Shown here in pieces: positions 7,893 through 58,747 of a DNA stretch of 64,000 bases. The stretch is from Escherichia coli (GTDB taxonomy: Bacteria; Pseudomonadota; Gammaproteobacteria; Enterobacterales; Enterobacteriaceae): assembly GCF_001677475.2 (NCBI RefSeq), contig NZ_CP015229.1; one strand, 5' to 3'. Numbering within the stretch: the stretch's first letter is position 1; each line of letters opens with the position of its first letter. Position numbers and translations under genes: made by a program. The notes under the pieces were generated by a model. The model had not been told where the DNA came from, did not search any database, and saw nothing but the letters and a program-made list of their open reading frames with translations.

Positions 7893-8000
7893 GGTATTCC
7901 TTACCGGAGAAATTATAAGCCCAATAACAATACGCCTGTGGCATTGTTCGCTCAAACTTATCGCGAGTGATTTGGCTCACACTCCGGTAAAGATTCCCCA

Positions 8001-8483
8001 TCACGCTAACGGTACATAAACATCCGTTTCCAGTCGCTGCTCTGTCACCCCTTCGGCAAGATTGGTGTAGTGAAACAGAATCGGTGCTTTACGCATTTTC
8101 TCGCCGCTTGCAGGCAGCCAGTGGCGAATAATGCCCCATATCGTGTGTGAAATATCGTCCAGCTCGCCAACATGGCGGGTAACAGCATAACGCCCACCGG
8201 TAAGTTCGCCATTACTCACGCCATAACGATTATCGGGGATCGGTTCGCTAACGCTGCCGCAGATATCAAAGCGAAACGCTTCCGGTGCGGTGGTGGCAGG
8301 GTCGTCCCAGGCGACGCCAAAAGTCTGGCTTTGGTTAACAGGAGAAAGCCCCGTCTCTTTACGCCACATGATAAATTTCGCCACGCTGTAGTTGAGCAAC
8401 TCAGGGCTACAGCGGTGCGGCAACATCGCCACAGGGATTGATGGGAAATCGATAATATTTACATCCAGTGTCAGGTTTGTCAT
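8001..8483 (-). CDS. ygiV: GyrI-like small-molecule-binding domain protein / transcriptional regulator
   Basis: 160 aa; sequence and position between ygiS and ygiW. Confidence 0.7.
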   Translation of the reverse strand: MTNLTLDVNIIDFPSIPVAMLPHRCSPELLNYSVAKFIMWRKETGLSPVNQSQTFGVAWDDPATTAPEAFRFDICGSVSEPIPDNRYGVSNGELTGGRYAVTRHVGELDDISHTIWGIIRHWLPASGEKMRKAPILFHYTNLAEGVTEQRLETDVYVPLA

Positions 8484-8535
8484 TTTGCCTCCCTGCGAAA
8501 TTATTCCCGGGAACGCGTCCCGGGAGCGGTAACAA

Positions 8536-8928
8536 TTACGGATTTACTTTGCGGATCTGTTTGACGTCAATTTCAACAGAATTCCAGTCTTTATCGACTT
8601 CCCCCTGAATCTCAACCGTATCTTTCGGCGTCACCGTCACGCCGTTCCAGCGTTTGTGGTCGATATCAACATTGATAGTACCGCTGGCATCTTTGAACAC
8701 GTAGAGATCGTCAGAGATGCGTTCAACGATATTGCCGCGCAGGGTTACCCAGGTGTCGTCACGCAGGGATTTTGCGCTTTCTACAGTCGTTACGCTGCCA
8801 TTCGGCCCCTGGAATCCTCCGGCCTGACTTTGCGTTGCCGATGGGCCAGAAAAACCGCCCTGCTCTGCTGCCATCACCGGTGCGCTGCACAGGGCCATTA
8901 CTGCGATTACTGCTGCGAATTTTTTCAT
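8536..8928 (-). CDS. ygiW: Periplasmic OB-fold (BOF family) stress protein
   Basis: Signal peptide MKKFAAVIAVMALCSAPVMA; ATG at 8926-8928; divergent from qseBC. Confidence 0.75.
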   Translation of the reverse strand: MKKFAAVIAVMALCSAPVMAAEQGGFSGPSATQSQAGGFQGPNGSVTTVESAKSLRDDTWVTLRGNIVERISDDLYVFKDASGTINVDIDHKRWNGVTVTPKDTVEIQGEVDKDWNSVEIDVKQIRKVNP

Positions 8929-9079
8929 GTTTATTACTCCCTTTAATGTCTGTTTCCGAGCATTTAACAAGATAGTCCTTAACAACTTCTTAAGGGAAAA
9001 AAATAAAATTTAATGCTGTACAGAGCGCGTTACAACACGGTTTACTGGCAGCAAATACGGTTATCGCAGGGATGAAAAA

Positions 9080-9739
9080 ATGCGAATTTTACTGATAGAA
9101 GATGACATGCTGATTGGCGACGGCATCAAAACGGGCCTTAGTAAAATGGGTTTTAGCGTCGACTGGTTTACACAAGGTCGTCAGGGAAAAGAGGCGCTAT
9201 ACAGCGCACCTTATGATGCGGTGATCCTGGATTTAACCTTACCAGGCATGGATGGTCGCGATATTTTGCGCGAATGGCGAGAAAAAGGTCAGCGTGAGCC
9301 GGTATTGATCCTGACCGCGCGCGATGCGCTGGCGGAACGTGTAGAAGGGCTGCGTCTGGGAGCTGACGATTATCTGTGTAAACCTTTTGCGTTGATAGAA
9401 GTCGCCGCCAGGCTAGAAGCTCTGATGCGCCGAACCAACGGCCAGGCCAGCAACGAGCTGCGCCACGGCAACGTCATGCTCGACCCCGGCAAACGTATCG
9501 CCACACTGGCTGGCGAACCCTTAACGCTGAAACCAAAAGAATTTGCCCTGCTGGAATTACTGATGCGTAACGCTGGTCGGGTACTGCCGCGCAAACTGAT
9601 TGAAGAGAAACTGTATACCTGGGACGAAGAGGTCACCAGTAATGCCGTTGAAGTGCATGTGCATCATCTGCGACGCAAACTCGGCAGTGATTTTATTCGT
9701 ACCGTTCATGGTATTGGCTACACATTAGGTGAGAAATGA
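9080..9739 (+). CDS. qseB: Two-component response regulator QseB (OmpR family)
   Basis: 219 aa; receiver domain (MRILLIEDD) plus winged-helix C-terminus; 4-nt overlap with downstream kinase gene. Confidence 0.9.
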
Positions 9740-11085
9740 AATTTACCCAACGTCTTAGTCTGCGAGTCAGGCTGACGCTAATCTTTTTAATTCTGGCCTC
9801 GGTGACCTGGCTGCTTTCCAGCTTTGTCGCCTGGAAACAAACAACGGATAACGTCGATGAGTTGTTCGACACCCAACTGATGCTGTTTGCCAAACGGTTA
9901 AGTACGCTCGATCTCAACGAAATCAACGCGGCAGATCGCATGGCACAGACGCCAAATAAATTAAAACACGGTCATGTTGATGACGATGCGCTGACCTTTG
10001 CCATCTTTACCCACGACGGCAGAATGGTCCTTAACGATGGCGATAACGGAGAAGATATTCCCTATAGCTATCAGCGGGAAGGTTTTGCTGACGGGCAACT
10101 GGTCGGTGAAGACGATCCCTGGCGTTTTGTCTGGATGACCTCACCTGATGGCAAATATCGCATCGTTGTTGGTCAGGAATGGGAATACCGCGAAGACATG
10201 GCGCTGGCGATTGTTGCCGGGCAATTGATCCCGTGGCTGGTCGCACTGCCGATTATGTTAATCATCATGATGGTACTACTGGGTCGTGAACTCGCGCCGC
10301 TGAACAAACTGGCGCTGGCACTACGTATGCGTGACCCTGACTCGGAAAAACCACTAAACGCGACGGGCGTACCTAGCGAAGTGCGTCCACTGGTTGAGTC
10401 GTTGAATCAACTGTTCGCCCGCACACATGCGATGATGGTTCGTGAACGACGCTTTACCTCCGACGCAGCTCACGAACTACGTAGCCCGTTAACGGCGCTG
10501 AAAGTGCAAACCGAAGTTGCGCAGCTCTCTGACGATGATCCGCAGGCGCGGAAAAAAGCGCTGCTTCAATTACATTCCGGAATCGATCGCGCTACTCGTC
10601 TGGTTGATCAACTGCTCACGCTATCGCGGCTGGACTCACTGGATAACCTTCAGGACGTCGCGGAGATCCCGCTTGAAGATCTCCTGCAATCGTCGGTGAT
10701 GGATATTTACCACACGGCGCAGCAGGCGAAAATTGACGTGCGACTGACACTCAATGTCCAGGGCATCAAACGCACCGGACAACCGCTATTGCTAAGTTTG
10801 TTGGTGCGAAACCTTCTGGATAACGCCGTGCGTTACAGTCCACAGGGTAGCGTGGTAGACGTCACGCTGAATGCCGATAATTTCATCGTGAGGGATAACG
10901 GCCCCGGTGTGACGCCAGAGGCACTGGCGCGAATTGGCGAACGCTTCTATCGCCCACCCGGGCAAACCGCTACCGGCAGTGGACTTGGGCTATCGATTGT
11001 CCAGCGAATCGCCAAATTGCATGGCATGAATGTTGAGTTTGGGAATGCGGAACAAGGTGGATTTGAGGCGAAGGTAAGCTGGTAA
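9736..11085 (+). CDS. qseC: Sensor histidine kinase QseC
   Basis: 449 aa; two TM segments, H-box (AAHELRSPL), ATPase domain; translationally coupled to qseB. Confidence 0.9.
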
Positions 11086-11194
11086 GGGTAAGACTTTTGC
11101 TAAATTCGCAAAAGACTTTGCACATTTTGCTAATTTCACCGTACCGCTCTGTGACGTACTATAGTCGACAAACGTCTCACCTTGAGGTTAAAAA

Positions 11195-11776
11195 ATGAGC
11201 AACATCCTGATTATCAACGGCGCGAAAAAATTCGCCCACTCCAATGGTCAACTGAACGACACCCTGACCGAAGTCGCGGATGGCACACTGCGCGACCTCG
11301 GGCATGATGTCCGCATCGTTCGCGCCGACAGCGACTACGATGTCAAAGCGGAAGTACAAAACTTTCTCTGGGCTGATGTGGTGATCTGGCAGATGCCAGG
11401 CTGGTGGATGGGCGCGCCGTGGACAGTGAAAAAATACATTGATGATGTATTCACCGAAGGTCACGGGACTCTGTATGCCAGCGATGGTCGTACCCGCAAA
11501 GATCCGTCGAAAAAATACGGCTCCGGCGGCCTGGTACAGGGCAAAAAATATATGCTTTCTCTGACCTGGAACGCACCAATGGAAGCCTTCACCGAAAAAG
11601 ATCAGTTCTTCCACGGCGTTGGCGTTGACGGTGTGTATCTGCCGTTCCATAAAGCAAACCAATTCCTCGGTATGGAACCGCTGCCGACATTTATCGCTAA
11701 TGACGTGATAAAAATGCCTGATGTTCCCCGCTATACTGAAGAATATCGCAAGCATCTTGTGGAAATTTTTGGTTAA
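11195..11776 (+). CDS. mdaB: NADPH:quinone oxidoreductase MdaB
   Basis: 193 aa flavodoxin-like; MSNILIINGAKKFAHSNGQLN. Confidence 0.85.
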   Translation: MSNILIINGAKKFAHSNGQLNDTLTEVADGTLRDLGHDVRIVRADSDYDVKAEVQNFLWADVVIWQMPGWWMGAPWTVKKYIDDVFTEGHGTLYASDGRTRKDPSKKYGSGGLVQGKKYMLSLTWNAPMEAFTEKDQFFHGVGVDGVYLPFHKANQFLGMEPLPTFIANDVIKMPDVPRYTEEYRKHLVEIFG

Positions 11777-11806
11777 CTAGAGCTCAGGCTTTAGAAGGAG
11801 TTAACC

Positions 11807-12121
11807 ATGCTTACCGTAATCGCAGAAATCCGTACTCGTCCTGGTCAACATCACCGTCAGGCGGTATTGGATCAGTTTGCTAAAATCGTTCCAACCGTAC
11901 TGAAGGAAGAAGGTTGCCACGGCTATGCGCCGATGGTGGATTGCGCTGCTGGCGTGAGTTTCCAGTCTATGGCGCCGGACTCTATCGTGATGATTGAGCA
12001 GTGGGAAAGCATCGCGCATCTTGAAGCGCACTTGCAGACCCCGCACATGAAAGCGTACAGCGAGGCCGTAAAAGGCGATGTGCTGGAGATGAATATCCGC
12101 ATCCTGCAACCGGGGATTTAA
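11807..12121 (+). CDS. ygiN: Quinol monooxygenase YgiN (ABM domain)
   Basis: 104 aa; follows mdaB with RBS GGAG. Confidence 0.8.
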   Translation: MLTVIAEIRTRPGQHHRQAVLDQFAKIVPTVLKEEGCHGYAPMVDCAAGVSFQSMAPDSIVMIEQWESIAHLEAHLQTPHMKAYSEAVKGDVLEMNIRILQPGI

Positions 12122-12165
12122 CATTCCTGAAAAGAGGCCGGTGTTGCTACCGGCCTCAGGTCAGA

Positions 12166-13053
12166 TTAGCCATTCTTTCTTCCCGTTTTCAAACCCCGAT
12201 GGAAATCGTTAATTCGCTTAATGGTTTTAACCGCACGCTGCGGCATCGCGGAAGCCACCGACCAGACAATCATTTCCAGGCACAACAATACCGTACCATG
12301 TAGTGGCGTTTTCCCCTTTTCATCCCCGCGCGGAACATGAATCACGATACTGGCGTCTTTGCTAAAACGTGAATCCAGCGCGTTTGTCAGCAAAATAACA
12401 GGGATCCCCAGCCGCCTCGCCTCACGAAGCGTTGTCAGCCCTTCCCGGTGCGCAGATTTTTGCGCCATCATGATCAGAACATCGCCACGTTGAAGCGCGA
12501 TCAGTTGCTCGGCAAGGCCAATACCCGTACGGTTTAGTGCCGTGGCAGGCAAACCTATGCGGTTGAATAGTCGTGCGGTATAGTCCGCCAGAATACCCGA
12601 AGCGCCAATGCCAAAAATTGCGACTTGCCGTGCCTGCACCAACAACGCTACCGCTTGCGCAAGCGCGTGGCGGTTTTCAGGCTCTGACAGGACATTACAA
12701 GTATACAAATGCCCTTCAAGAACAAAGTCGATTGCGGTGTTAACATCGCTCGTCAAGTTACTCACCGTCGTAGACATCTTTTCGCTGGAACTAAGGGCTG
12801 GACCAAGCCACTGTTCCAGAGTGCGTCTCAGATCACGCAGCCCGGCAAACCCCAGAGCCTGTATAGCCCTGATAACTGTGGCATCGGAAGTGTTCAACGT
12901 GGCCGCAATTTCCATCGCCGTTTGCTCGAGTACCACTTCACGATGCTCATTAATGTAGCTTGCGACAGCTCTTAACCCAGGCGTTAACTGACTCGCGCGA
13001 GTGCGAAAACGCTCACCATAAATATCAACCCGCGTTTTGTCTTTCTGGATCAT
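12166..13053 (-). CDS. RpiR/MurR-family transcriptional regulator (HTH + SIS domain)
   Basis: 295 aa; N-terminal HTH and SIS-domain-like core; start codon overlaps stop of upstream binding-protein gene. Confidence 0.65.
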   Translation of the reverse strand: MIQKDKTRVDIYGERFRTRASQLTPGLRAVASYINEHREVVLEQTAMEIAATLNTSDATVIRAIQALGFAGLRDLRRTLEQWLGPALSSSEKMSTTVSNLTSDVNTAIDFVLEGHLYTCNVLSEPENRHALAQAVALLVQARQVAIFGIGASGILADYTARLFNRIGLPATALNRTGIGLAEQLIALQRGDVLIMMAQKSAHREGLTTLREARRLGIPVILLTNALDSRFSKDASIVIHVPRGDEKGKTPLHGTVLLCLEMIVWSVASAMPQRAVKTIKRINDFHRGLKTGRKNG

Positions 13054-13997
13054 TTAGCCTCCGGTAGAGGTCGTCCCGCAATTTGTGATTGTATCTGCGC
13101 AGCCATCAGCCCCAGAGATGCAAAGGAGTTAGAAATCGCCTCTTCACGAGAAATCAGCACATAGCGCCCGGAACGACAGGCCGTCAGAAACTGACACCAT
13201 CCCGGCATGACTTTTTCCATTGCTGCCAGCTCATCCTGAGGTTTACCACCGGTGTCACCGCGCCAGGTTGCAAAAACAAAATCGGCATCCAGTTCAGGTA
13301 AACGCTCTGCGCTCACATCCATTCGCCCACCTTCAGGAATGCTCTCAATCAGCGGCGGAAAGCGAAAACCAGCATCGCGTAATACCCGCCCCAGCGAATG
13401 ATAGCTATGCATCACATTAATTTTTCCCTGATTTGCCTGAATCACCGATACCGTTATTTTTTGGCTGTCCAGCGTCGCCTTCAGCGCATTGATTTGTGCC
13501 TGATAGCGGCGTTCAAGTATCGCCAGCTGCGACTGCGTTCCTGTAAGTTCTGCCAGCTTGCGGTAGATTTCTGGCGCGCCTCCTTTGAGATGATCAATGC
13601 TCACCGTGGGCGCAATTTTTTCCAGTTGTTCAATGGGCGTATTACGGGTCGGTTCTGTGATGATCAGGTCAGGCTTTGCCGCCACAATCGCTTCAATATC
13701 AATATCAGCGGTGCCAATAAAAGCGATCGATGAATTATCAAAGTCGACACCTGTCAATAACGCGCCTGATCGAATGAAATGGCTACCGTCAGGCCGGGTT
13801 CGCCCGTGGCTGGCGACAGGAGGTACACCGAGCTCAATCAGAGGAATAGTGATATCAAGATCGTGTAAAGAGACAATTCTCTTTGGATGAGCAGGAACAG
13901 TGACTTTGCGCCCTAAATCATCAGTAAAGACCTGAACAGGTTCTGTCGCGCGGGCAAAGAATGACAACAGTATCAGCAGAGAAAAAAATAAACGCAT
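13050..13997 (-). CDS. Periplasmic substrate-binding protein, siderophore/cobalamin type (FecB-like)
   Basis: ORF 13050-14060; probable start at Met preceding signal peptide MRLFFSLLILLSFFARA. Confidence 0.7.
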   Translation of the reverse strand: MRLFFSLLILLSFFARATEPVQVFTDDLGRKVTVPAHPKRIVSLHDLDITIPLIELGVPPVASHGRTRPDGSHFIRSGALLTGVDFDNSSIAFIGTADIDIEAIVAAKPDLIITEPTRNTPIEQLEKIAPTVSIDHLKGGAPEIYRKLAELTGTQSQLAILERRYQAQINALKATLDSQKITVSVIQANQGKINVMHSYHSLGRVLRDAGFRFPPLIESIPEGGRMDVSAERLPELDADFVFATWRGDTGGKPQDELAAMEKVMPGWCQFLTACRSGRYVLISREEAISNSFASLGLMAAQIQSQIAGRPLPEAK

Positions 13998-14007
13998 ATA
14001 ACTCCCA

Positions 14008-15057
14008 TTAAAAACTGTTCCTGCGCTGCCAGAGCAGTAGCAAAAAGAATGGTCCACCAATCAATGAAATAATGATTCCGGCAGGCAGTTGCAAAGGCAA
14101 AAAAGCCAAACGACCAATGCTATCCGCCAGGATGACTAACAACGCCCCCGATACGGCGCTCCCCAGCAGTAATGTCGTCTGCCCGCCACGTAGAATAAAA
14201 CGTGATATATGGGGTGCTATCAATCCGACAAAACCGATGTTACCAACACACGAAACGCAGACGGCTGTCAGGATTATTGGTGCGGCGACACGTAACAACG
14301 CCAGACGAGAACTATTCACCCCTAACCCGGTTGCAACCTGATGACCAAGCAGAGCGATATCCGCCGTCCTGGCGGTGAACAGCAATAAAAGAGCGGCTGG
14401 CAACATCCAACAGGCTGAAATACCGACTAACATCCAGTTAGCTGCATGCAGGCTTCCCGATAACCACATCAATGCAGTTTGTACATCTCGAACATCTGCA
14501 GTGGTCATAAATACACCGATACCGGCGGCGAAAAACCAGGAAACACCAATACCAATCAGAACAAATCGCGGGCGGGAAATATCGCGTGCACAAAAAATCA
14601 CGATTAAAGCCACCAACAAGCCACCAGCAAGACCAGCCACTGGACGCCAGAACATTCCCAGCATTGGAAACTGGAAGATCAGCCACAGCACCGCCACGCT
14701 ACATCCTTCTTTGACGCCGATTAAACCAGGATCGGCAAGGCCGTTACGCGCAATGGATTGCATCGCGGCCCCCGCCATACCTAACATGGCTCCGCATAGC
14801 AATGCCATGATGACTCTCGGCAAGCGAATATCCTGCACAATATAACGTGCGTCTGTGCTTACGTTTTCTGGAGCAAACAACGCTCGTCCTACTTCCGATG
14901 CCGGGACAGAAAAAGAACCATGCATCAGACCGAATATCAGTATTCCAACCGCAAACAGAAACAGCCCACCAAGCAACACCAGATTTTTAGGGCGTACCAG
15001 TGTCGAAAACTTACCAACACGTAGTGGACGTAGCCCGACGTTCATTATCCGACTCAT
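14008..15057 (-). CDS. ABC transporter permease, FecCD family
   Basis: 349 aa polytopic membrane protein. Confidence 0.75.
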   Translation of the reverse strand: MSRIMNVGLRPLRVGKFSTLVRPKNLVLLGGLFLFAVGILIFGLMHGSFSVPASEVGRALFAPENVSTDARYIVQDIRLPRVIMALLCGAMLGMAGAAMQSIARNGLADPGLIGVKEGCSVAVLWLIFQFPMLGMFWRPVAGLAGGLLVALIVIFCARDISRPRFVLIGIGVSWFFAAGIGVFMTTADVRDVQTALMWLSGSLHAANWMLVGISACWMLPAALLLLFTARTADIALLGHQVATGLGVNSSRLALLRVAAPIILTAVCVSCVGNIGFVGLIAPHISRFILRGGQTTLLLGSAVSGALLVILADSIGRLAFLPLQLPAGIIISLIGGPFFLLLLWQRRNSF

Positions 15058-16037
15058 TTGAACATCCTCGTCGCCATAATGACAAAAACAGGCGCACCAA
15101 CTAACGCCGTCATGACACCGGTCGCTAACTCATGGGGCGTGAAAAGCGTCCGAGCAATAATATCTGCCAGTAATAACAAAAGCGCGCCGACACAAGCTGA
15201 AAGAGGGAGCAGAACGCGCAGATCCGCTGATACCAGACGCCTGACAATCTGCGGTACTAGCAGGCCGACAAAACCAATGGGGCCAGCAATCGATACGGCT
15301 GCGCCACAGAGCAACGCGATCGCAAGCAGAGTGAATGTTCGCGTGCGGAGTACCGAGACGCCCAGCCCCTGCGCCATGCGATCACCCAGTGCCAACATGT
15401 TAAGAGAGGGCGCAAGGTAAATGGCTAACACAACCCCCCCCAGAGAAAACCAGGCGGACGTACCCAGCGTCGCCCAATCCTGCCCCGCTAAATCACCTGC
15501 TAGCCATGTCCGCATCGCCAGCAGTGTTTGTTCGTCAAGAATCAGGATTGCAGCCGTTATTGAGGACACGAACGCCGATAGCGCCACGCCGCATAAAGTA
15601 ACTTTCATTGGCGTTAACCCTGAACGCCCTGCGGAGGAAAGCAGCAATATCAACAGGAACAATAACGCGCCCCCCGTAGATGCCAGCAGTGGGCGTCCAA
15701 CCGGAAAGGCCAGTCCAAGCGCACTGGCGGCAACGACAGCAAGAGCGGCTCCGGCATTTAAGCCTAAAATATGTGGCTCCCCCAATGGGTTACGAATGAC
15801 AGCCTGCAACAAAGCACCAGCAACTCCAAGAGAAGCACCGGTAAGCAATGCTGCCGCTAAACGCGGCAAACGGAGTCTTACAATTACGTTGTGATCGAAG
15901 TTTTGCGGTTCAAAATGAAGAAATGCCTGCAACACCGTTTGTGGTGCAATAAATCGGGCACCAATCCCTGGATATACCACGCATCCCACCAGCAGTAAGG
16001 CGAGGAAAATTACAGTAACCAGCCCTGTGCGCATCAT
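15054..16037 (-). CDS. ABC transporter permease, FecCD family
   Basis: 327 aa polytopic membrane protein; overlaps neighbouring genes by 4 nt. Confidence 0.75.
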   Translation of the reverse strand: MMRTGLVTVIFLALLLVGCVVYPGIGARFIAPQTVLQAFLHFEPQNFDHNVIVRLRLPRLAAALLTGASLGVAGALLQAVIRNPLGEPHILGLNAGAALAVVAASALGLAFPVGRPLLASTGGALLFLLILLLSSAGRSGLTPMKVTLCGVALSAFVSSITAAILILDEQTLLAMRTWLAGDLAGQDWATLGTSAWFSLGGVVLAIYLAPSLNMLALGDRMAQGLGVSVLRTRTFTLLAIALLCGAAVSIAGPIGFVGLLVPQIVRRLVSADLRVLLPLSACVGALLLLLADIIARTLFTPHELATGVMTALVGAPVFVIMATRMFK

Positions 16038-16843
16038 ACTTTTTCTACACCACGAAACGGCATGAAGAACGGCTTTCCCGTCAGAGGATTTATTGATGCG
16101 TGAACATCAACGTCAAAGACAGCTTTTACCAGCTCAGGCGTGCAATGCTCCCCCTCATTCAACACACGCACCACTTTCCCCTGGCGTAAAAATATCAACG
16201 TATCGCCATAATTGACGGCAAAATTCAGATCATGCAACACCACGACGACTGTACGCCCGTGATGACGCGTTAAGTCATGTAATAACTCAAGAATTTCAAC
16301 CTGATAACGTAAATCAAGCCAGGTTGTGGGTTCATCCAGCAGGATATAAGGCGTCTTTTGCGCCAACACCATCGCAATCCAGCAACGCTGGCGCTGCCCA
16401 CCAGAGAGTTTTTCAACCGGTAAATGTGCAAACTCCTGCGTACCGGTTAATTTCAGGGCCTCTTCTACCGCCTGCTCGTCGGCGTCGCTCCATTGACGTA
16501 TGAAATTTTGCCAGGGAAAACGCCCACGCGACACCAGTTCATAAACGGTTAAGCCCTCCGGCAATAATGGCGACTGCGGCAAGATCCCAAGTCTACGGGA
16601 TAACGCTTTCGTTGGTTGCTCGTGAATCGCTTTACCATCCAGCAATATAGAGCCGCCCATAGGCTGCAAGATACGTGCAATGGTGCTGAGCAACGTCGAC
16701 TTTCCACAGCCGTTTGCCCCAACCAGAACGGTCATTTTTTCTGTGGGAACGGAGAAAGAAACACCATCAACAATGATCTTCTTGTGATACCCGGCAGAAA
16801 CATTGTCGAGGATCAGCCCCTGCCCTTTTGCGTTATGTGCCAC
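16034..16843 (-). CDS. ABC transporter ATP-binding protein (FecE-like)
   Basis: 269 aa; Walker A GANGCGKST, signature LSGGQRQR, Walker B ILLDEP. Confidence 0.8.
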   Translation of the reverse strand: MAHNAKGQGLILDNVSAGYHKKIIVDGVSFSVPTEKMTVLVGANGCGKSTLLSTIARILQPMGGSILLDGKAIHEQPTKALSRRLGILPQSPLLPEGLTVYELVSRGRFPWQNFIRQWSDADEQAVEEALKLTGTQEFAHLPVEKLSGGQRQRCWIAMVLAQKTPYILLDEPTTWLDLRYQVEILELLHDLTRHHGRTVVVVLHDLNFAVNYGDTLIFLRQGKVVRVLNEGEHCTPELVKAVFDVDVHASINPLTGKPFFMPFRGVEKV

Positions 16844-17216
16844 GTGTACGCCAACTTAATCAAAGACAAACAAAAATAAAACTCATTCTCTTTTGAGAGT
16901 TTGACGCCACAAAATGTAGTAGTCAAGAAGTTAAAATCCATACAAAAACAAGGTAAATAACAGGTGAAATATTTTTAAAGATAAAAATAAAATCATTAAA
17001 TATTAATAAATTACCATCAATTAAATTGCATTAACCTCTCATAAAAACACATGTAGCAATTTTTTGTTATTTCTCATTTACTACTACATTACCGCATGGT
17101 TGAATGATTCTCAATTACATATCCGATGGTGAAATAACAAACGGATAGTGCTTAGTGAGCAACAAGAAACAATTTTCACTCACGACAATCCGTGAGTTTT
17201 TGGGATAACAGACTAA

Positions 17217-19358
17217 ATGGCTAAGTTCACACCTTCATTCTCAGGAATCAAAGGTCGGGCGCTCTTTTCACTGCTCTTTGCAGCACCGATGATTCATGCA
17301 ACCGACACTGCAACGACCAAAGATGGCGAAACAATCACTGTTACAGCGGATGCAAATACCGCAACTGAGGCGACCGATGGTTATCAACCTCTGAGCACCT
17401 CCACGGCGACATTAACCGATATGCCGATGCTGGATATCCCGCAAGTGGTCAATACGGTTAGCGATCAGGTTCTGGAAAATCAGAATGCGACGACGCTGGA
17501 TGAGGCACTTTATAACGTCAGTAACGTGGTACAGACCAATACATTAGGCGGAACTCAGGACGCCTTTGTACGTCGTGGGTTTGGTGCTAACCGGGATGGC
17601 TCCATCCTGACCAACGGTCTGCGAACCGTACTTCCTCGCAGCTTCAACGCTGCAACAGAACGTGTGGAAGTGCTAAAAGGCCCGGCCTCCACGCTGTATG
17701 GCATTCTTGATCCTGGCGGACTGATTAACGTCGTGACAAAGCGCCCGGAAAAAACATTCCATGGTTCTGTATCAGCCACGTCCTCCAGTTTTGGCGGAGG
17801 CACTGGGCAACTGGATATCACAGGTCCCATTGAAGGCACTCAGCTGGCATACCGCCTGACGGGGGAAGTGCAGGATGAAGATTACTGGCGGAATTTCGGT
17901 AAAGAGCGCAGCACATTTATTGCCCCATCACTCACCTGGTTTGGTGATAATGCAACAGTAACCATGCTCTATTCACATCGGGATTATAAAACGCCGTTCG
18001 ATCGTGGAACGATTTTCGACCTTACGACGAAACAGCCCGTAAACGTTGATCGAAAAATACGTTTCGACGAACCGTTTAATATTACAGATGGTCAGTCCGA
18101 TCTGGCGCAACTCAACGCAGAATATCATCTCAATAGCCAGTGGACAGCGCGCTTTGATTACAGCTACAGCCAGGATAAATACAGCGATAATCAGGCTCGT
18201 GTTACCGCGTATGATGCAACGACAGGAACGCTGACACGGCGTGTTGATGCAACTCAGGGATCTACCCAGCGTATGCATTCTACTCGTGCGGATCTACAAG
18301 GGAATGTTGATATTGCTGGATTCTATAATGAGATTCTGGGTGGGGTGTCATATGAATATTATGATCTTCTGCGGACAGATATGATCCGCTGTAAAAACGC
18401 TAAAGATTTCAATATCTACAACCCTGTTTATGGCAATACCAGCAAATGCACAACGGTCTCGGCGTCGGACAGCGATCAGACGATCAAACAAGAGAGCTAC
18501 TCAGCATATGCGCAAGATGCGCTCTATCTGACCGATAACTGGATTGCCGTCGCTGGGATCCGCTATCAGTATTACACGCAGTATGCGGGTAAAGGCCGTC
18601 CTTTTAATGTCAATACTGACAGCCGCGATGAACAATGGACGCCCAAACTGGGGTTGGTCTACAAACTGACGCCATCGGTATCCTTATTTGCCAATTATTC
18701 GCAAACATTTATGCCGCAATCGTCAATTGCCAGCTACATTGGCGATCTTCCACCGGAATCATCTAATGCTTACGAAGTCGGGGCAAAAGTCGAGCTGTTC
18801 GATGGTATAACCGCAGATATTGCGCTGTTTGATATCCATAAACGTAACGTGTTGTATACCGAAAGTATTGGTGATGAAACCATCGCCAAAACGGCAGGCC
18901 GCGTTCGTTCAAGAGGGGTAGAAGTCGACCTTGCGGGAGCATTAACTGAAAACATTAATATCATTGCCAGCTACGGCTATACCGATGCTAAGGTTCTGGA
19001 AGATCCTGATTATGCAGGGAAACCATTGCCGAATGTTCCTCGTCATACCGGTTCGCTATTCCTGACCTATAACATTCATAACATGCCAGGCAATAACACA
19101 CTGACGTTTGGCGGTGGTGGACATGGCGTAAGCCGTCGTTCGGCAACCAATGGGGCTGACTATTATCTGCCAGGCTATTTCGTTGCCGATGCCTTCGCCG
19201 CATACAAAATGAAATTGCAGTATCCGGTCACACTGCAATTAAACGTCAAAAACCTATTTGATAAAACGTATTACACCTCTTCCATCGCCACAAATAATCT
19301 GGGGAATCAGATTGGCGATCCGCGTGAAGTGCAATTCACGGTGAAAATGGAATTTTGA
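17217..19358 (+). CDS. TonB-dependent outer-membrane receptor
   Basis: 713 aa; signal peptide, TonB-box-like ETITVTA, plug domain, C-terminal aromatic residue (ends MEF); divergent from the ABC operon across an AT-rich 370-bp region. Confidence 0.8.
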   Translation: MAKFTPSFSGIKGRALFSLLFAAPMIHATDTATTKDGETITVTADANTATEATDGYQPLSTSTATLTDMPMLDIPQVVNTVSDQVLENQNATTLDEALYNVSNVVQTNTLGGTQDAFVRRGFGANRDGSILTNGLRTVLPRSFNAATERVEVLKGPASTLYGILDPGGLINVVTKRPEKTFHGSVSATSSSFGGGTGQLDITGPIEGTQLAYRLTGEVQDEDYWRNFGKERSTFIAPSLTWFGDNATVTMLYSHRDYKTPFDRGTIFDLTTKQPVNVDRKIRFDEPFNITDGQSDLAQLNAEYHLNSQWTARFDYSYSQDKYSDNQARVTAYDATTGTLTRRVDATQGSTQRMHSTRADLQGNVDIAGFYNEILGGVSYEYYDLLRTDMIRCKNAKDFNIYNPVYGNTSKCTTVSASDSDQTIKQESYSAYAQDALYLTDNWIAVAGIRYQYYTQYAGKGRPFNVNTDSRDEQWTPKLGLVYKLTPSVSLFANYSQTFMPQSSIASYIGDLPPESSNAYEVGAKVELFDGITADIALFDIHKRNVLYTESIGDETIAKTAGRVRSRGVEVDLAGALTENINIIASYGYTDAKVLEDPDYAGKPLPNVPRHTGSLFLTYNIHNMPGNNTLTFGGGGHGVSRRSATNGADYYLPGYFVADAFAAYKMKLQYPVTLQLNVKNLFDKTYYTSSIATNNLGNQIGDPREVQFTVKMEF

Positions 19359-19359
19359 T

Positions 19360-19400
19360 CAAAAAAGCCCGGTATACACTTGTATACCGGGCTATGTTTT
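19360..19400. terminator. Bidirectional hairpin terminator between receptor gene and parE
   Basis: Stem-loop AGCCCGGTATACACTTGTATACCGGGCT flanked by A-run and T-rich run. Confidence 0.55.
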
Positions 19401-19421
19401 ATTCTTCTGGCGGGAGGATTA

Positions 19422-21317
<1,896 letters not shown>

Positions 21318-27499: not shown

Positions 27500-27536
27500 G
27501 CCATGATACCGGATGGCACTCGCCATCCGGTAATTA

Positions 27537-28325
27537 TTAGCCTATCAGCACCGACAACATACTTAAACTGCCCATTTCTATACCATCGACCGGAATGGTA
27601 ATTGGCTCCTGCCCATCCCACGCACCTAAGACATACAACAACGGCAGATAGTGCTCTGGCGTTGGGTTCGATAACGCGCCACCTTCATGGTCGAGATAAT
27701 TCACCAGAGGATGCTGCTCTACCGGCCCTTGCCACGTCAGATTCGCTTTCACATACTCATTAAACGACGTCGCCCACGGATACGGTGAACTATCACCGTG
27801 CCACTTCACTGTGCGCAGGTTATGCACCACGTTACCGCTGGCGACCAACATTATTCCTTCATCCCGCAGCGCTGCCAGTTTGCGCCCCATTTCGAAATGC
27901 CAGGCAGCAGGTTTGCTACTGTCGATACTCAACTGCACCATCGGGATATCGGCGTCAGGATACATCTTAATCAGCACGCCCCACGAGCCGTGGTCAAAGC
28001 CCCAGGCTTCTTTATCCAGCGTCACCGGGACCGGCGCTAACAGCTCAACCAGATGCTGTGCCAGCGCAGGCGAACCCGGAGCAGGATAATGCGTGTCGTA
28101 CAGCGCCTGCGGGAAGCCACCAAAGTCATGAATCGTGGGCGGCGTCTCCATCGCGGTCACTCCTGTTCCACGGGTAAACCAGTGAGCCGAAACCACCACA
28201 ATCGCTTGCGGGCGTGGCAATGTCATCCCCAACTTCTGCCAGCTGCGGGTATACAAATTATCTTCCAGCACGTTCATCGGACTACCGTGACCTAAAAACA
28301 ATGCTGGCATACGTGTTGAAGACAT
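27537..28325 (-). CDS. ygiD: Extradiol (DOPA-type) ring-cleavage dioxygenase YgiD
   Basis: ORF 27537-28352; HGSP motif near N-terminus; start placement uncertain. Confidence 0.75.
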   Translation of the reverse strand: MSSTRMPALFLGHGSPMNVLEDNLYTRSWQKLGMTLPRPQAIVVVSAHWFTRGTGVTAMETPPTIHDFGGFPQALYDTHYPAPGSPALAQHLVELLAPVPVTLDKEAWGFDHGSWGVLIKMYPDADIPMVQLSIDSSKPAAWHFEMGRKLAALRDEGIMLVASGNVVHNLRTVKWHGDSSPYPWATSFNEYVKANLTWQGPVEQHPLVNYLDHEGGALSNPTPEHYLPLLYVLGAWDGQEPITIPVDGIEMGSLSMLSVLIG

Positions 28326-28467
28326 GATGATATCCTTAACTAAAGGTGTCATTTTGATATCCTCACAATACGCTTGTTTGGCGGAGTAAGAACCCGGATA
28401 ACAATGATGATGATCATCAGTTATTTTGACGATCTGCCTGAAGGTGAAGATTTATAAGGAGTTGTCG

Positions 28468-29241
28468 ATGTCAGTACCTCTCATTCTGACCATACTGGCG
28501 GGGGCAGCCACGTTTATTGGCGCGTTTCTCGGCGTTCTCGGGCAAAAACCCTCGAACCGCTTACTGGCGTTTTCGCTAGGATTTGCGGCGGGGATCATGT
28601 TGCTCATCTCATTAATGGAAATGCTTCCTGCCGCACTAGCAGCTGAAGGAATGTCGCCTGTGTTGGGTTATGGAATGTTTATCTTCGGTCTGCTTGGCTA
28701 TTTTGGCCTGGACCGCATGTTGCCACATGCGCATCCGCAGGATTTAATGCAAAAATCGGTGCAGCCGTTGCCAAAATCGATCAAGCGCACAGCCATTCTG
28801 CTCACTCTCGGCATCAGTCTGCATAACTTCCCGGAAGGGATTGCCACCTTTGTCACGGCGAGCAGCAACCTGGAGCTGGGCTTTGGCATCGCACTGGCCG
28901 TTGCGTTACACAATATTCCTGAAGGTCTGGCGGTTGCAGGCCCGGTTTACGCGGCAACGGGGTCTAAACGCACCGCGATTCTTTGGGCGGGGATTTCTGG
29001 ACTGGCAGAAATTCTTGGTGGTGTGCTGGCGTGGTTAATCCTCGGTAGCATGATTTCCCCGGTGGTCATGGCGGCAATCATGGCGGCGGTTGCAGGAATT
29101 ATGGTGGCGCTCTCGGTTGATGAATTAATGCCGCTCGCCAAAGAGATTGACCCTAATAATAACCCCAGCTATGGCGTACTATGTGGAATGTCAGTGATGG
29201 GATTCAGTTTAGTGCTGCTACAAACGGCGGGAATTGGTTAA
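28468..29241 (+). CDS. zupT: Zinc transporter ZupT (ZIP family)
   Basis: 257 aa from ATG 28468 ([16 protein letters not shown]); histidine-containing TM helices. Confidence 0.85.
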
Positions 29242-29298
29242 AAGCAACATCAGAAGTTGTCCAGCGCATGGACAACTTCTGCCAGCTTCACTAAAGCC

Positions 29299-29469
29299 TT
29301 ATTCTACCTTTTCGGCTGTCTCTTCTCTCGTACTGTTTAAGTATTTGTTCCGCGCTTCAAGCAGTGCGTCTCTGTCCTGGCGAAACGCCCGACAATAACG
29401 TTTCAAATGCAGGAAATAACCCACAACAACAAGAGCAATCAATACAATCCAGTACCAGGCGATAAACAT
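29299..29469 (-). CDS. Small single-pass membrane protein (hypothetical)
   Basis: ORF 29299-29493; hydrophobic N-terminal helix then charged tail; start uncertain. Confidence 0.35.
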   Translation of the reverse strand: MFIAWYWIVLIALVVVGYFLHLKRYCRAFRQDRDALLEARNKYLNSTREETAEKVE

Positions 29470-29730
29470 CCTTTTACCCTTAATATTTAACAATACTAAA
29501 CATTTAGCGCATAAATTTCACATATCCTTTTTCGGATATATTCATATGGTCGCATAATAACGGAACAATTATATGATTTTGATCATAATGAAAAAGAATG
29601 CCTGATATTAATGAAATTTTCTCATAGAAAGAGAAGCGGAATTAACATCTTGCATAGCAGGGAAAAATAAAAACCGAAGCCTGCTACAACTTCGGTTTCT
29701 TGATTAAGGCAGTAAATTAAGCAGCGGTTT

Positions 29731-30384
29731 TCAGCTGGCTTTACGCTCATGTGCCTGACGATATGCCACCAGGTCTTCAATAGTCACGAGCGCCATATTG
29801 TGTTTATTGGCAAACTCAATGCACTCTGGTGCACGCGCCATCGTGCCATCGTCATTAGTCAGCTCACACAGCACACCAGCCGGTTTAAAGCCTGCCAGCG
29901 TCATTAGATCAATAGTTGCCTCAGTATGACCGCCACGCGTCAGTACACCACCAGCCTGAGCGCGGAGTGGGAAAACGTGGCCCGGGCGATTCAGATCAGA
30001 AGGTTTTGCGCCATCGGCAATCGCTGCGCGAACGGTCGTAATACGGTCAGCGGCAGAAACACCGGTAGTCACACCTTCAGCCGCTTCAATGGTCACGGTA
30101 AAACCGGTGCCATAGGCGCTGGTGTTATTTTCTACCATCATTGGCAGATCGAGTTGTTTACGGCGATCTTCAGTAATGCACAGGCAAACAATACCGCTAC
30201 CGTGGCGAATGGTCAGCGCCATCTGCTCAACGGTCATGGTTTCTGCCGGGAAGATCATATCACCTTCGTTTTCACGGTCTTCATCATCAAGCACCATCAC
30301 ACCGCGTCCTTCACGCAGTGCAGCCAGTGCATTTTCAACACGTTCGAAAGGCGTACCAAAAGAGGAAAGTAGCGTCTGATTCAT
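29731..30384 (-). CDS. ribB: 3,4-dihydroxy-2-butanone-4-phosphate synthase
   Basis: 217 aa; RENEGD motif. Confidence 0.9.
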
Positions 30385-30419
30385 GGTAAAAAAACCTCAC
30401 TAAAATTATGGTTACCAGA

Positions 30420-30645
30420 ATCAGGGCAGTCTTAGGAGTGGCGGCATATAGCCAAAATAACGTGAGCGGGTCCATGCCCGACAGAATCGTTACTCTCTCC
30501 CATCCGGACTCTAACCGTCGGCCCCGGAATTACACCGGATCTGCTGTCCTTTGAGTTCGCACCCAAAGCGCTCGCGGGCTTTCAACTGAGTTGATTTACC
30601 GCCGGTGGGGAATTTCGCCCCGCCCTGAGAATAAGCGGATTCACT
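30420..30645 (-). promoter_or_regulatory. FMN riboswitch (RFN element) in the ribB leader
   Basis: Reverse strand contains GGGGCGAAATTCCCCACCGGCGGTAAA ... CCGGGGCCGACGGTTAGAGTCCGGATGGGAGAG, the conserved RFN aptamer blocks, just upstream of ribB. Confidence 0.8.
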
Positions 30646-30757
30646 ATAACGCTAATGATTAGCGGCAGCAACGCATAGCTTCACATAATTCTGGTTTATG
30701 ACTTACCCTTATCGCACTACAATGGCACTCAACACCTATCAGTACAGGGAAACTACA

Positions 30758-31057
30758 ATGATTGACCCGAAAAAAATTGAGCAAATCGCTCGCCAGGTTC
30801 ACGAATCAATGCCTAAAGGAATCAGGGAGTTCGGGGAAGATGTGGAGAAAAAAATCCGCCAAACCCTACAAGCACAGCTGACGCGTCTCGATCTGGTGAG
30901 CCGCGAAGAATTCGACGTACAGACGCAAGTCCTGTTACGGACTCGTGAAAAACTAGCTTTACTGGAGCAGCGCATCAGTGAACTGGAAGCGCGCAATAAT
31001 TCGGTAGCAGATCTTCAATCTCCTCCGGCTATCCCGCCTATTGATAAAGCAGAATAA
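30758..31057 (+). CDS. ubiK: Ubiquinone biosynthesis accessory factor UbiK (YqiC)
   Basis: Start at ATG 30758 ([16 protein letters not shown]); coiled-coil small protein. Confidence 0.75.
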
Positions 31058-31065
31058 AGCAACAC

Positions 31066-31088
31066 AAAAACGGGCCAGACGGCCCGTA
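31066..31088 (-). terminator. Rho-independent terminator downstream of glgS
   Basis: Reverse strand CGGGCCGTCTGGCCCG followed by TTTTT. Confidence 0.55.
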
Positions 31089-31091
31089 ATA

Positions 31092-31292
31092 TCAGTGTTC
31101 TAATTCAAGTTCTCTGGTTTGCATCATCTGTTGACAATACCAGGCATAACGTGCGCAAAACCAGGTTCTATGTTCTTCATCCATGTTACCAGTAACGGCC
31201 AAAATATCGACCGGGCGACCTTCTGCGTGCATTCTGGCAAAACTACGCGCGAGAAAATCGAAATTATTTAAAGAATTAAGACTATGATCCAT
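31092..31292 (-). CDS. glgS: Surface composition regulator GlgS
   Basis: 66 aa [21 protein letters not shown]... Confidence 0.85.
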
Positions 31293-31560
31293 AAGCACAT
31301 CCTCCGGTTATTGCATACCTTTTAAGGCCATATGCTTTTTCTGATTTCAGTATTCCCCAATCAGTGTAGTGCCTTTAAACATAACGTGCGTAAATATATT
31401 GTCCCCGATCACACTTTTTAGTGAAAAATAAAAAACCATATTAAAAGACTTTCTCTTCCAGAACTTCTCTAACATGTGTTATTATTAACAAAGATAAATG
31501 TAAGCAAGGAAACTATCCCAAAGTAAATATTGCGTCACTAAATGGACATTGGAGTGACAT

Positions 31561-32190
31561 ATGATTTTATTCGCCGACTATAATACCCCTTATCTTTTCG
31601 CTATTTCCTTTGTACTGTTGATCGGCCTTTTAGAAATTTTAGCGCTTATCTGCGGTCACATGCTCTCCGGTGCTCTTGATGCACATCTTGACCATTATGA
31701 TTCCATAACCACAGGTCATATTAGCCAGGCACTTCATTATCTCAATATCGGAAGATTGCCAGCTCTCGTCGTTCTATGCTTGCTGGCTGGTTTTTTTGGT
31801 CTTATTGGCATCCTGTTGCAGCATGCCTGCATCATGTTCTGGCAATCACCACTGTCGAACCTGTTCGTGGTTCCTGTCAGTTTTCTGTTTACGATTATTG
31901 CGGTGCATTATACCGGTAAAATAGTTGCGCCCTGGATTCCACGCGACCATAGTTCAGCTATTACAGAAGAAGAATATATTGGTAGCATGGCGTTAATTAC
32001 CGGTCATCAGGCCACTTCAGGTAATCCCTGCGAAGGAAAACTCACCGATCAATTTGGCCAAATACATTATTTACTACTGGAGCCTGAAGAAGGAAAAATT
32101 TTCACTAAAGGAGACAAAGTGTTAATTATTTGCCGACTTTCTGCAACGCGATATTTGGCGGAAAACAATCCCTGGCCCCAAATATTGTAA
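31561..32190 (+). CDS. yqiJ: Inner-membrane protein YqiJ (DUF1449)
   Basis: 209 aa; multi-TM; upstream of the flotillin-like gene. Confidence 0.75.
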
Positions 32191-32216: not shown

Positions 32217-33878
32217 ATGGATGATATTGTTAATTCTGTGCCCTCCTGGATGTTTACCGCAATTATTGCCGTATGCATTCTGTTTATTATTGGAATTATT
32301 TTCGCCAGGCTCTATCGTCGCGCTTCGGCAGAGCAAGCTTTTGTTCGTACTGGTTTAGGTGGGCAAAAAGTGGTAATGAGCGGTGGCGCAATCGTGATGC
32401 CGATCTTTCATGAAATAATCCCCATCAATATGAATACCCTGAAGCTGGAAGTCAGCCGCTCAACCATTGATAGCCTGATTACGAAAGATCGTATGCGCGT
32501 CGATGTAGTAGTCGCTTTCTTTGTGCGGGTAAAACCTTCAGTAGAAGGGATTGCCACCGCCGCCCAGACGCTGGGGCAACGCACCCTGTCGCCTGAAGAC
32601 TTACGTATGTTGGTTGAAGATAAATTTGTCGATGCCCTCCGTGCAACAGCTGCGCAAATGACCATGCATGAGTTACAGGATACCCGCGAGAACTTCGTGC
32701 AGGGAGTACAAAATACCGTAGCTGAAGATCTGTCGAAAAACGGCCTGGAACTGGAAAGCGTTTCACTTACCAACTTTAACCAGACGTCGAAAGAACATTT
32801 CAATCCTAACAACGCCTTTGACGCCGAAGGTTTAACCAAGCTGACGCAGGAGACGGAGCGCCGTCGTCGCGAACGTAACGAAGTTGAACAGGATGTAGAA
32901 GTTGCGGTGCGTGAGAAAAACCGTGATGCGCTTTCGCGGAAGCTGGAGATTGAACAACAAGAAGCGTTTATGACGCTTGAACAGGAGCAGCAGGTTAAAA
33001 CCCGTACCGCTGAGCAGAATGCGAAAATTGCAGCTTTTGAGGCCGAGCGTCGTCGGGAAGCAGAGCAGACGCGTATTCTGGCTGAACGACAGATTCAGGA
33101 AACAGAAATCGACCGCGAACAGGCCGTCCGCTCAAGAAAAGTTGAAGCTGAACGTGAAGTTCGCATTAAAGAGATCGAACAGCAGCAGGTCACCGAAATC
33201 GCTAACCAGACGAAATCGATCGCTATTGCCGCCAAATCGGAACAACAGTCCCAGGCAGAAGCGCGTGCTAATCTCGCACTTGCAGAAGCGGTAAGCGCCC
33301 AACAAAACGTAGAAACCACTCGCCAGACTGCCGAAGCCGATCGTGCTAAACAAGTTGCCCTAATCGCTGCCGCGCAGGATGCAGAAACCAAAGCGGTTGA
33401 ACTGACCGTGCGGGCGAAAGCAGAAAAAGAAGCCGCAGAGATGCAGGCGGCGGCTATCGTTGAGTTAGCCGAAGCTACACGTAAAAAGGGTCTGGCGGAA
33501 GCAGAAGCACAACGTGCGCTGAACGATGCTATCAACGTACTTTCTGATGAACAAACCAGCCTTAAATTCAAACTGGCCTTGTTGCAGGCGCTACCTGCGG
33601 TAATAGAGAAATCCGTTGAGCCGATGAAGTCTATCGACGGCATCAAGATTATTCAGGTCGATGGATTAAACCGAGGTGGTGCTGCGGGGAATGCGGCATC
33701 AGGCAGCGTTAGTGGCGGAAACCTGGCAGAACAGGCATTGTCTGCCGCCCTTTCTTACCGCACACAGGCACCACTGATTGACTCCTTGCTCAATGAAATC
33801 GGTGTTTCAGGCGGCTCACTGACGGCATTGACCTCACCCTTAACCTCAACAACTCCCGTCGAAGAAAAAGCAGAGTAA
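32217..33878 (+). CDS. yqiK: Flotillin/band-7 (SPFH) family protein YqiK
   Basis: 553 aa; N-terminal TM, SPFH domain, long Ala/Glu-rich coiled coil. Confidence 0.8.
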   Translation: MDDIVNSVPSWMFTAIIAVCILFIIGIIFARLYRRASAEQAFVRTGLGGQKVVMSGGAIVMPIFHEIIPINMNTLKLEVSRSTIDSLITKDRMRVDVVVAFFVRVKPSVEGIATAAQTLGQRTLSPEDLRMLVEDKFVDALRATAAQMTMHELQDTRENFVQGVQNTVAEDLSKNGLELESVSLTNFNQTSKEHFNPNNAFDAEGLTKLTQETERRRRERNEVEQDVEVAVREKNRDALSRKLEIEQQEAFMTLEQEQQVKTRTAEQNAKIAAFEAERRREAEQTRILAERQIQETEIDREQAVRSRKVEAEREVRIKEIEQQQVTEIANQTKSIAIAAKSEQQSQAEARANLALAEAVSAQQNVETTRQTAEADRAKQVALIAAAQDAETKAVELTVRAKAEKEAAEMQAAAIVELAEATRKKGLAEAEAQRALNDAINVLSDEQTSLKFKLALLQALPAVIEKSVEPMKSIDGIKIIQVDGLNRGGAAGNAASGSVSGGNLAEQALSAALSYRTQAPLIDSLLNEIGVSGGSLTALTSPLTSTTPVEEKAE

Positions 33879-34039
33879 ACCCTCTTCTAGGAATAATCCC
33901 TGGCCCAAAAAGCCGGGGATTTTTTATATCTGCGTTCCGCTAAAAAGTGTAAATGATCAGGTTGTTGCAGCGTTTTGCGTGACTGCTCGGGGAAGGCAAA
34001 ACTGCATCAGAGAAAGCATTGCGCGGGGTCTGGCGCTCA

Positions 34040-34190
34040 TCAACAATCGGGGAGTCAGTAAGGGGCTGAAACGGGAAAGCCCCTCCCGAAGAAGGGGCCT
34101 TATAGAAGGAAAGGGTTATGATGAAGTTCGTCATCATACTGATTGTGTTGTTACTGTTAAGTTTCCCGACTTACTAACAACTCATCAGAG
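34040..34190 (-). ncRNA. Sib-type antisense sRNA (antitoxin) overlapping the ibs ORF; boundaries approximate
   Basis: Inferred from the ibs ORF and flanking hairpins; ends cannot be fixed from sequence alone. Confidence 0.4.
34118..34177 (+). CDS. Ibs-type type I toxin peptide (19 aa, MMKFVIILIVLLLLSFPTY)
   Basis: Short hydrophobic ORF with upstream GGAAAGGG RBS; hallmark of ibs/sib loci in the yqiK-hldE intergenic region. Confidence 0.65.
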   Translation: MMKFVIILIVLLLLSFPTY

Positions 34191-34296
34191 GGGGGAGAAA
34201 TCCTCCCTTACCCTTGTTCCTTTACTTTAGGTTGAAAAAAAAACAGCGTCAATAGATCTGCCTGCTACGAAGCGAGATCTGTGAAGCGCTTTCCGG

Positions 34297-54475: not shown

Positions 54476-54551
54476 GGCCCCTTAGCTCAGTGGTTAGAGC
54501 AGGCGACTCATAATCGCTTGGTCGCTGGTTCAAGTCCAGCAGGGGCCACCA
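54476..54551 (+). tRNA. ileX: tRNA-Ile2 (anticodon CAU, lysidine-modified), ileX-type
   Basis: 76-nt cloverleaf GGCCCCTTAGCTCAGTGGTTAGAGCAGGCGACTCATAATCGC...GGGGCCACCA with CAT anticodon and encoded CCA; differs from both Met tRNAs. Confidence 0.85.
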
Positions 54552-54765
54552 GATTTCAATGAATTACAGATGTATCCAAACTATCTTGCTTTACCAGGAT
54601 ACTTATAGGATACCTCTGAGAAGTATTAACAAGTAAGAATTGGCTCATGCCTACAGAACAGTTGGGTCGTAGCAGCCGTTCACCTGCGAACAAGAAAGTG
54701 CTACGGGTCTGAACTTTTGCCCCCAACTCTCCAAGAGACCGGCAAAAACCCTGACGGAGGTATCA

Positions 54766-54909
54766 ATGGATACTTTAAGAAAGGGCTCAGACCTGCTGTC
54801 TGCACGTGTGATTGCCGTTACAGGTTTAATCGCAGCACTTGGCAATTTAGGTCTATGCCCAATAGCCGTAGTGCTAGTATGTATAGCTTTAGTTATCATG
54901 CTGAAGTAA
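54766..54909 (+). CDS. Candidate 47-aa small membrane peptide (MDTLRKGSDLLSARVIAVTGLIAALGNLGLCPIAVVLVCIALVIMLK)
   Basis: ATG preceded by GGAGG at correct spacing; followed by GGCCCAGCtttcGCTGGGCC hairpin; rare codons (TTA, AGA, CTA, ATA); below the ORF-track size cutoff. Confidence 0.35.
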   Translation: MDTLRKGSDLLSARVIAVTGLIAALGNLGLCPIAVVLVCIALVIMLK

Positions 54910-55652
54910 TGACAGCGTAACAAGCTCGGCCCAGCTTTCGCTGGGCCTCCCATTTCTACCTCCCAAAATCTATTAGAAACAATAAGCCACTAAAGAAAGA
55001 GCTTTTGCTGGCTACAATACTCACATACAAACAATTTTTATTTTTCGCGGGCGTAAAAAAACGATGGGGCTGGCAGTCCGGAAGACGTCAGGGTACAGAG
55101 ATTTGTACCCGCCTCTCCCTGTGCATGAGCACAATAAGTAACCGAAGGCGGAATTCCGCCCTCGGTACTCACATATGAGAAACGATATTTCTTCCACCGA
55201 TACCCTTTATTTGGGTATCGCGAGTAAGCCCCAAAATCTGGGTGTTACTCTTACTACCCAAACTACGGGTAGTTTCCGTAGTTTCATGGTCGAGTTGCAG
55301 ATCTGCAACTCACCCACCAGCCAACGCAATTTTGCGTTATCGGGAATATCAGCAAGTTACCGCCGCAGTCGTTCCGGCTTCTTCCACTGGTAAGTATTTT
55401 TCGCGCTCTCCCTCCGTTGTTGAGAACGGCGACGGTATGCCAGCAACTCAAGGACTCTGATCCGTATGTCGCGCATATCCACGCCGTTAAGCTCGATACC
55501 GTCACGGCGCATCATCTCTGCCACCACACGCGCGTAATTTTCGGCTATCACGCTGTCCGGCTGCGTGGCCTCCTATTTGCTTGATGGTTGTTTGATTCCG
55601 GTAACGCGGCGGATTAATCCCAGCAATTCAGATTCTGTCATAGTGCGCTACG

Positions 55653-55992
55653 TTACTTGTCTTTATTCGGCTGCAACTTATCCGGCACATTTCCGGTAGT
55701 TTCCATCAGGTAATCAGCCAGTATCTGTGGGAGGTTGTCGGCAACTCTGGCACTGGCATTACAGGCTTTAACCACTTCCCTTTTAAGCCCATCCAGCATA
55801 GCGGGGGTAATGTGTGGGAAGCTCCTTTGCATAGTAAGCGGGAGGCTGTCCATGATTGATGAAATCTGACTCGCCAGTTTTGAAAGCGCGTACATGCAAA
55901 ACTCTGTATCAATCACGTCACCGCGATCGCGCTCGTTTTTAAGTTCCTGCGCCTCCGCCTGTGCTGTCAGTAATCTGATCCTGACTCGTAAG
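55653..55992 (-). pseudogene. Nu1-like small terminase subunit, C-terminal fragment (gene split by IS insertion)
   Basis: Translation ...LLTAQAEAQELKNERDRGDVIDTEFCMYALSKLASQISSIMDSLPLTMQRSF... resembles the lambda Nu1 C-terminal half; frame is open up to the IS boundary. Confidence 0.7.
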
Positions 55993-58741: not shown

Positions 58742-58747
58742 CTTGTC

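Follow-up and report, generated by a model that had tools for sequence, protein, structure and literature searches.

An ancestral empty site between ubiK and glgS in an Escherichia coli chromosome segment, at the position of the K-12 fimbrial operon ygiL-yqiGHI

Yqi-family operons and the ubiK-glgS locus

Escherichia coli MG1655 encodes ygiL-yqiGHI as one of its 12 chaperone-usher operons (PMC8174762). In K-12 strain J53, the locus consists, in order, of ubiK, ygiL, IS2, the usher gene (yqiG, disrupted by the IS2), yqiH, yqiI and glgS. Related fimbriae named ‘Yqi’ and ‘Yqi-like’ are encoded at different loci and are mutually exclusive (Wurpel et al. 2013; PMC3559732). The K-12 operon is of the Yqi-like type. 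The ‘Yqi’ operon of ExPEC, EA/I, is a cluster of 4,975 bp that is found neither in K-12 nor in O157 (Antão et al. 2009; PMC2771359); its four genes lie between yqiD and ribB. The proteins of the K-12 and EA/I operons shared 38–59% amino acid identity.

The window analysed here, a stretch of 64,000 nucleotides of an E. coli chromosome, contained ygiC, ygiD, zupT, yqiD, ribB, an FMN riboswitch, ubiK, glgS, yqiJ, yqiK, an ibs/Sib module and hldE in this order. The names of ubiK, glgS and yqiJ were taken from the RefSeq annotation of near-identical genomes. The identities of ubiK and glgS were supported by the Pfam families BMFP and GlgS, which are annotated on a draft contig whose sequence matches that of the window at 99.987% identity. 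The features of the locus were as follows:

29588-29732, no strand: empty site of the EA/I (‘Yqi’ of ExPEC) operon, just downstream of ribB, located with blastn against the O18 locus
30488-30636, minus strand: FMN riboswitch (Rfam)
30758-31057, plus strand: ubiK (yqiC), an open reading frame of 99 amino acids with an ancestral-type C-terminal tail; the TAA stop codon ends at 31057
30989-31060, plus strand: segment without BLAST homology to K-12, 72 bp, comprising the final 23 ubiK codons with the stop codon, and 3 bases beyond it
31058-31091, no strand: spacer between the convergent genes ubiK and glgS, exactly 34 bp, the empty site of the K-12-type ygiL-yqiGHI operon
31070-31087, minus strand: predicted intrinsic-terminator hairpin ACGGGCC-GUCU-GGCCCGU followed by UUUUUGUGUU on the glgS transcript (terminator scan)
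31092-31292, minus strand: glgS, an open reading frame of 66 amino acids, an allele linked to the empty site; the TGA stop codon is at 31092-31094

The whole window was compared with 90 kb of K-12 by local BLAST (blastn). Homology ended at 30988 and resumed at 31061, so that 72 bp of the window stood opposite 6,637 bp of K-12, approximately 1.3 kb of the latter being IS2. The break fell within ubiK rather than 3' of it, and UbiK was 99 amino acids long with an ancestral tail in the window and 96 amino acids long with a different tail in K-12. The glgS alleles differed as well. The K-12-type locus and the window had ribB, the FMN riboswitch, ubiK, glgS, yqiJ and yqiK in common, and the glgS terminator hairpin at the right-hand junction of the K-12 operon was the same as that of the window, which had 34 bp in place of an operon of ~5.3 kb (6.6 kb with IS2). 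The first-pass annotation had placed an operon of several kb at this position in K-12, had reported it missing from the window and had proposed a K-12 alignment across yqiC-glgS as the check. This alignment, together with the J53 gene order, bore the claim out: the two genes are not adjacent in K-12.

Between ubiK and glgS the window contained no genes for an usher, a chaperone, a major subunit or an adhesin. No homologues of YgiL, YqiG, YqiH or YqiI were detected across the 64-kb window (tblastn, E ≤ 1e-3), nor were homologues of the EA/I proteins. With all eight Yqi-like and EA/I proteins negative, relocation of the operon to another part of the window was rejected.

The second site was likewise empty. 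The window had 145 bp where O18 had 5,482 bp (O18 locus 3930-9411; blastn), and the 4,975-bp cluster between yqiD and ribB was missing. ExPEC strains of B2/ST95 with EA/I, such as O18, share with the window the adjacency of ubiK and glgS and the 34-bp spacer, whereas they carry the related four-gene operon between yqiD and ribB, at a distance of ~1.3 kb. A known layout is the O157:H7 type (zupT-yqiD-ribB-ubiK-glgS-yqiJ), which agreed with the window in gene order, in the 99-amino-acid UbiK and in having neither a Yqi-like nor an EA/I operon, although sequence identity between the window and such genomes was only ~98.5–99%.

Polarity of the site and origin of the K-12 insertion

Relatives of UbiK were scanned in one genome per species (at least 80 loci, with neither E. 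fergusonii nor a cryptic Escherichia clade explicitly represented), and each listed locus was searched for ribB, ubiK, glgS, yqiJ and the four K-12 fimbrial proteins. Among the loci listed, all that carried glgS (E. albertii, a second Escherichia lineage, eight Citrobacter, Salmonella enterica arizonae, Superficieibacter, Raoultella, Klebsiella and Pseudocitrobacter) had ubiK and glgS side by side and facing each other, and none had a fimbrial gene between the two. From the 3' end of ubiK through the spacer and its hairpin, the window was collinear, base for base, with E. albertii, the second Escherichia lineage, Citrobacter werkmanii and S. enterica arizonae. The UbiK tail of the window was of the PAPAIPPVDPQE type, as in Salmonella, Citrobacter and Enterobacter. 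The motif PAIPP(V/I)D was found in the tails of the window, Salmonella, Citrobacter, Enterobacter and Kosakonia, but not in that of K-12. Since gene adjacency in the outgroups, the collinear spacer and the outgroup-like UbiK tail agree, the empty site is the ancestral state, and the derived one is that of K-12, with the operon inserted. Alignment, UbiK tails and outgroup gene order all place the window in the ancestral empty-site haplotype of ubiK-glgS. We give a probability of about 0.88 to the reading in which the window has this haplotype and the operon of K-12 came in once, by horizontal transfer, as a low-GC insertion of ~5.3 kb. The operon had earlier been called ‘absent’, which holds in that it is not in the window; no loss is implied, and ‘absent’ ought not to be taken as ‘deleted’, since the empty site is ancestral.

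The K-12 insert had a GC content of 32–47%, against ~51% in its flanks. A search for direct or inverted repeats flanking it returned only the inverted repeats of IS2 and chance matches, by which a deletion scar and mobile-element ends were rejected as candidates; the result thus lends no support to site-specific integration or excision. In the left flank, the mismatches that separate the window from K-12 climbed towards the junction (0, 5, 9, 19 and 42 per 100 bp), and in the right flank they dropped away from it (16, 6, 3, 2 and 1 per 100 bp). These differences were fixed by haplotype class, with K-12 and APEC E19057 on one side and the window, N3 and O18 on the other, and the 3' end of glgS in the window showed haplotype-specific differences from the K-12 allele.

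The left and right junctions were identical in 4/4 of the Yqi-like-positive genomes examined (K-12, APEC O78:H4, O111:H8 and the blood isolate PS00260.4), which represented different yqiHI allele classes, and all four encoded the 96-amino-acid UbiK. UbiK had 99 amino acids in the four empty-site E. coli examined. The two UbiK tails are thus linked to the two states of the site: the isoform of the window is the ancestral one, and the 96-amino-acid isoform would be the imported one. The K-12 insertion overwrote the last 23 codons of ubiK. The tail found there in K-12 resembles a diverged UbiK tail, yet it had no close match among the 80 outgroup loci listed, the best being Buttiauxella with 52% identity over 21 amino acids.

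The Yqi-like operon probably entered one E. coli lineage on a single occasion, most likely by homologous recombination with a donor in which the operon already followed ubiK. Crossovers in ubiK and near glgS would have exchanged the final 23 ubiK codons, leaving the divergence gradient in both flanks. That the mechanism was recombination, and that the donor contributed its own ubiK end, is what the similarity of the tail and the gradient point to. We see about an even chance that a single import from an enterobacterial donor, which brought the 3' end of its own ubiK, created the two UbiK isoforms, apparently fully linked to the presence or absence of the operon.

Two other explanations for the empty site were weighed. 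An ancestor of the strain could have carried ygiL-yqiGHI and later lost it, either by deletion or by recombination with an empty-site allele of another E. coli lineage. E. coli recombines frequently; the flanks in the window are mosaic, with best-matching complete genomes that vary by segment and never exceed 99.1% identity; and the operon is often decaying (IS2, IS1, frameshifts, stop codons), so that losing it would not be costly. A simple deletion, however, cannot restore the ancestral ubiK 3' end, spacer and hairpin that align with those of E. albertii, Citrobacter and Salmonella, and both flanks carry the variants of the empty haplotype rather than those of the K-12 type. With simple deletion excluded, allelic replacement is the sole remaining route of loss. 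We consider secondary loss improbable. For the strain of the window, vertical inheritance and the regaining of an empty allele by recombination after an operon-bearing ancestor predict the same sequence and cannot be told apart.

The remaining explanation, an assembly collapse or mis-join that hides a real operon, is already refuted; nothing spoke in its favour, and we regard it as having next to no chance of being correct. A total of 2,067 complete genomes showed the identical contiguous arrangement, as did several other genera and an independent draft assembly, 99.987% identical over 7.6 kb. This draft (GCA_019140065.1) was found by exact-protein look-up. The closest complete RefSeq E. coli genomes reached at most 98.6–99.1% identity (window 7000-21000 and 28426-32190). 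The existence of a near-identical draft indicates that the window sequence is real and that its lineage is poorly represented among complete genomes.

The terminator hairpin between ubiK and glgS

The description of the 34-bp spacer as essentially one terminator hairpin, made in the first-pass annotation, was upheld by both a terminator scan and folding. The scan found a 7-bp stem with 6 GC pairs and a 4-nt loop, followed on the minus strand by TTTTTGTGTT. The hairpin folded with −18.0 kcal/mol (z −4.4) on the minus strand and −16.2 kcal/mol (z −4.9) on the plus strand; 0/200 shuffles folded as well. In the alignment, the core stem CGGGCC/GGCCCG was invariant across genera and the loop was variable. 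A hidden RNA gene was rejected: when the complete window was scanned with Rfam at gathering thresholds, the only matches were the FMN riboswitch, a single Sib RNA and a single tRNA, with nothing at 31058-31091.

On the glgS strand the GC-rich stem-loop and the U-run immediately after it have the form of a Rho-independent (intrinsic) terminator, and the hairpin is best read as the predicted intrinsic terminator of glgS. In the ancestral arrangement it lies 12 nt past the ubiK stop codon, and it probably serves ubiK as well. Like shared (bidirectional) intrinsic terminators, it is a single GC-rich hairpin between converging stop codons, flanked by an A-rich and a T-rich run, one to each side; in contrast to them, it has a good U-tract on the glgS side only. 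On the plus strand, the ubiK side, the U-tract was poor (UAAUAUCA), the stem was followed by TAATATCA, and the scan called no terminator. Because of this poor U-tract, bidirectional action is unproven; the hairpin is predicted to terminate glgS efficiently and ubiK more weakly.

Distribution, other differences in the window and significance

Frequencies were determined in 5,426 complete E. coli genomes. The empty site, that is, contiguous ubiK-glgS, was present in 2,067 (38%), including O157:H7 and B2 strains. K-12-type yqiHI was detected at ≥80% coverage in ~3,267 (60%) and the EA/I operon in 994 (18%). Neither operon was present in 1,114 genomes (20.5%), O157:H7 included, in which zupT to yqiJ was uninterrupted as in the window. 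The sum of 3,267, 994 and 1,114 is 5,375, which fits the mutual exclusivity of Yqi-like and EA/I operons. The state of the window is an ordinary presence/absence polymorphism, which has already been described (Wurpel et al. 2013).

Where present, Yqi-like operons were often broken. IS2 had inserted at two different places in K-12 and APEC E19057, yqiH was frameshifted in O111:H8, the usher gene of PS00260.4 had an internal stop codon, and others carried IS1 insertions.

At the ribB-side site, related four-gene operons were observed in Klebsiella spallanzanii, Enterobacter, Lelliottia, Citrobacter and Pseudocitrobacter (loci listed, at ~3000-7900), with ushers 42–71% identical to the EA/I usher. 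Because related operons occupy the same position in other genera, the sequences make this locus look either old and repeatedly lost, or a hotspot. The ygiD-zupT-yqiD flank of the window (27534-29587) was 92.6% identical to that of the O18 locus (1871-3929), far under the usual level between E. coli strains.

The first-pass annotation had taken the empty site, together with missing mqsRA, an extra iron locus and an island, as the mark of a clearly non-K-12 strain. The empty site does exclude K-12, but it is weakly diagnostic, as 38% of complete E. coli share this state. The three other differences proved real. Compared with K-12 by blastn, 928 bp with mqsR-mqsA were missing at 7993-7999. An iron-siderophore uptake locus of 7.3 kb, not found in K-12, lay between ygiN and parE (12122-19425) and encoded an RpiR-family regulator, a substrate-binding protein, two FecCD-type permeases, an ATPase and a TonB-dependent receptor; the locus is similar to the Fit system. 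A 14-kb query that includes the locus was present to at least 80% in 1,869/5,426 complete genomes. A tRNA with the anticodon CAT (54476-54551; tRNA-Ile, ileX, in the K-12 annotation) was followed from 54555 to 64000 by DNA not found in K-12, with the IS21 genes istA/istB at 56086-58266 and a P4-family primase at 61986-63818.

Further differences from K-12 were observed in the window. A segment of 593 bp with ygiZ was missing at 11085-11091. One ibs/Sib toxin-antitoxin repeat was present at 33896-34252 (Sib RNA at 34103-34252, minus strand), compared with two in K-12, ibsD and ibsE. Two patches of yqiK (32657-33100 and 33607-33800) differed from K-12 at as many as 14 and 27 positions per 100 bp while their surroundings were almost identical, a pattern that suggests recombinant segments or a variable C-terminal region.

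In itself the finding matters little: it is a correct strain-typing remark on a cryptic, often-decayed fimbrial operon whose patchy distribution has been published. It is of use for annotating the window and for guarding against the over-reading of differences from K-12. What is added here is the polarity of the site, the rewritten 3' end of ubiK in K-12-type strains, and a window without either of the Yqi-family operons. Should the tail have an effect on UbiK-UbiJ function, the fimbrial polymorphism would be hitch-hiking with a difference in a factor of ubiquinone biosynthesis.
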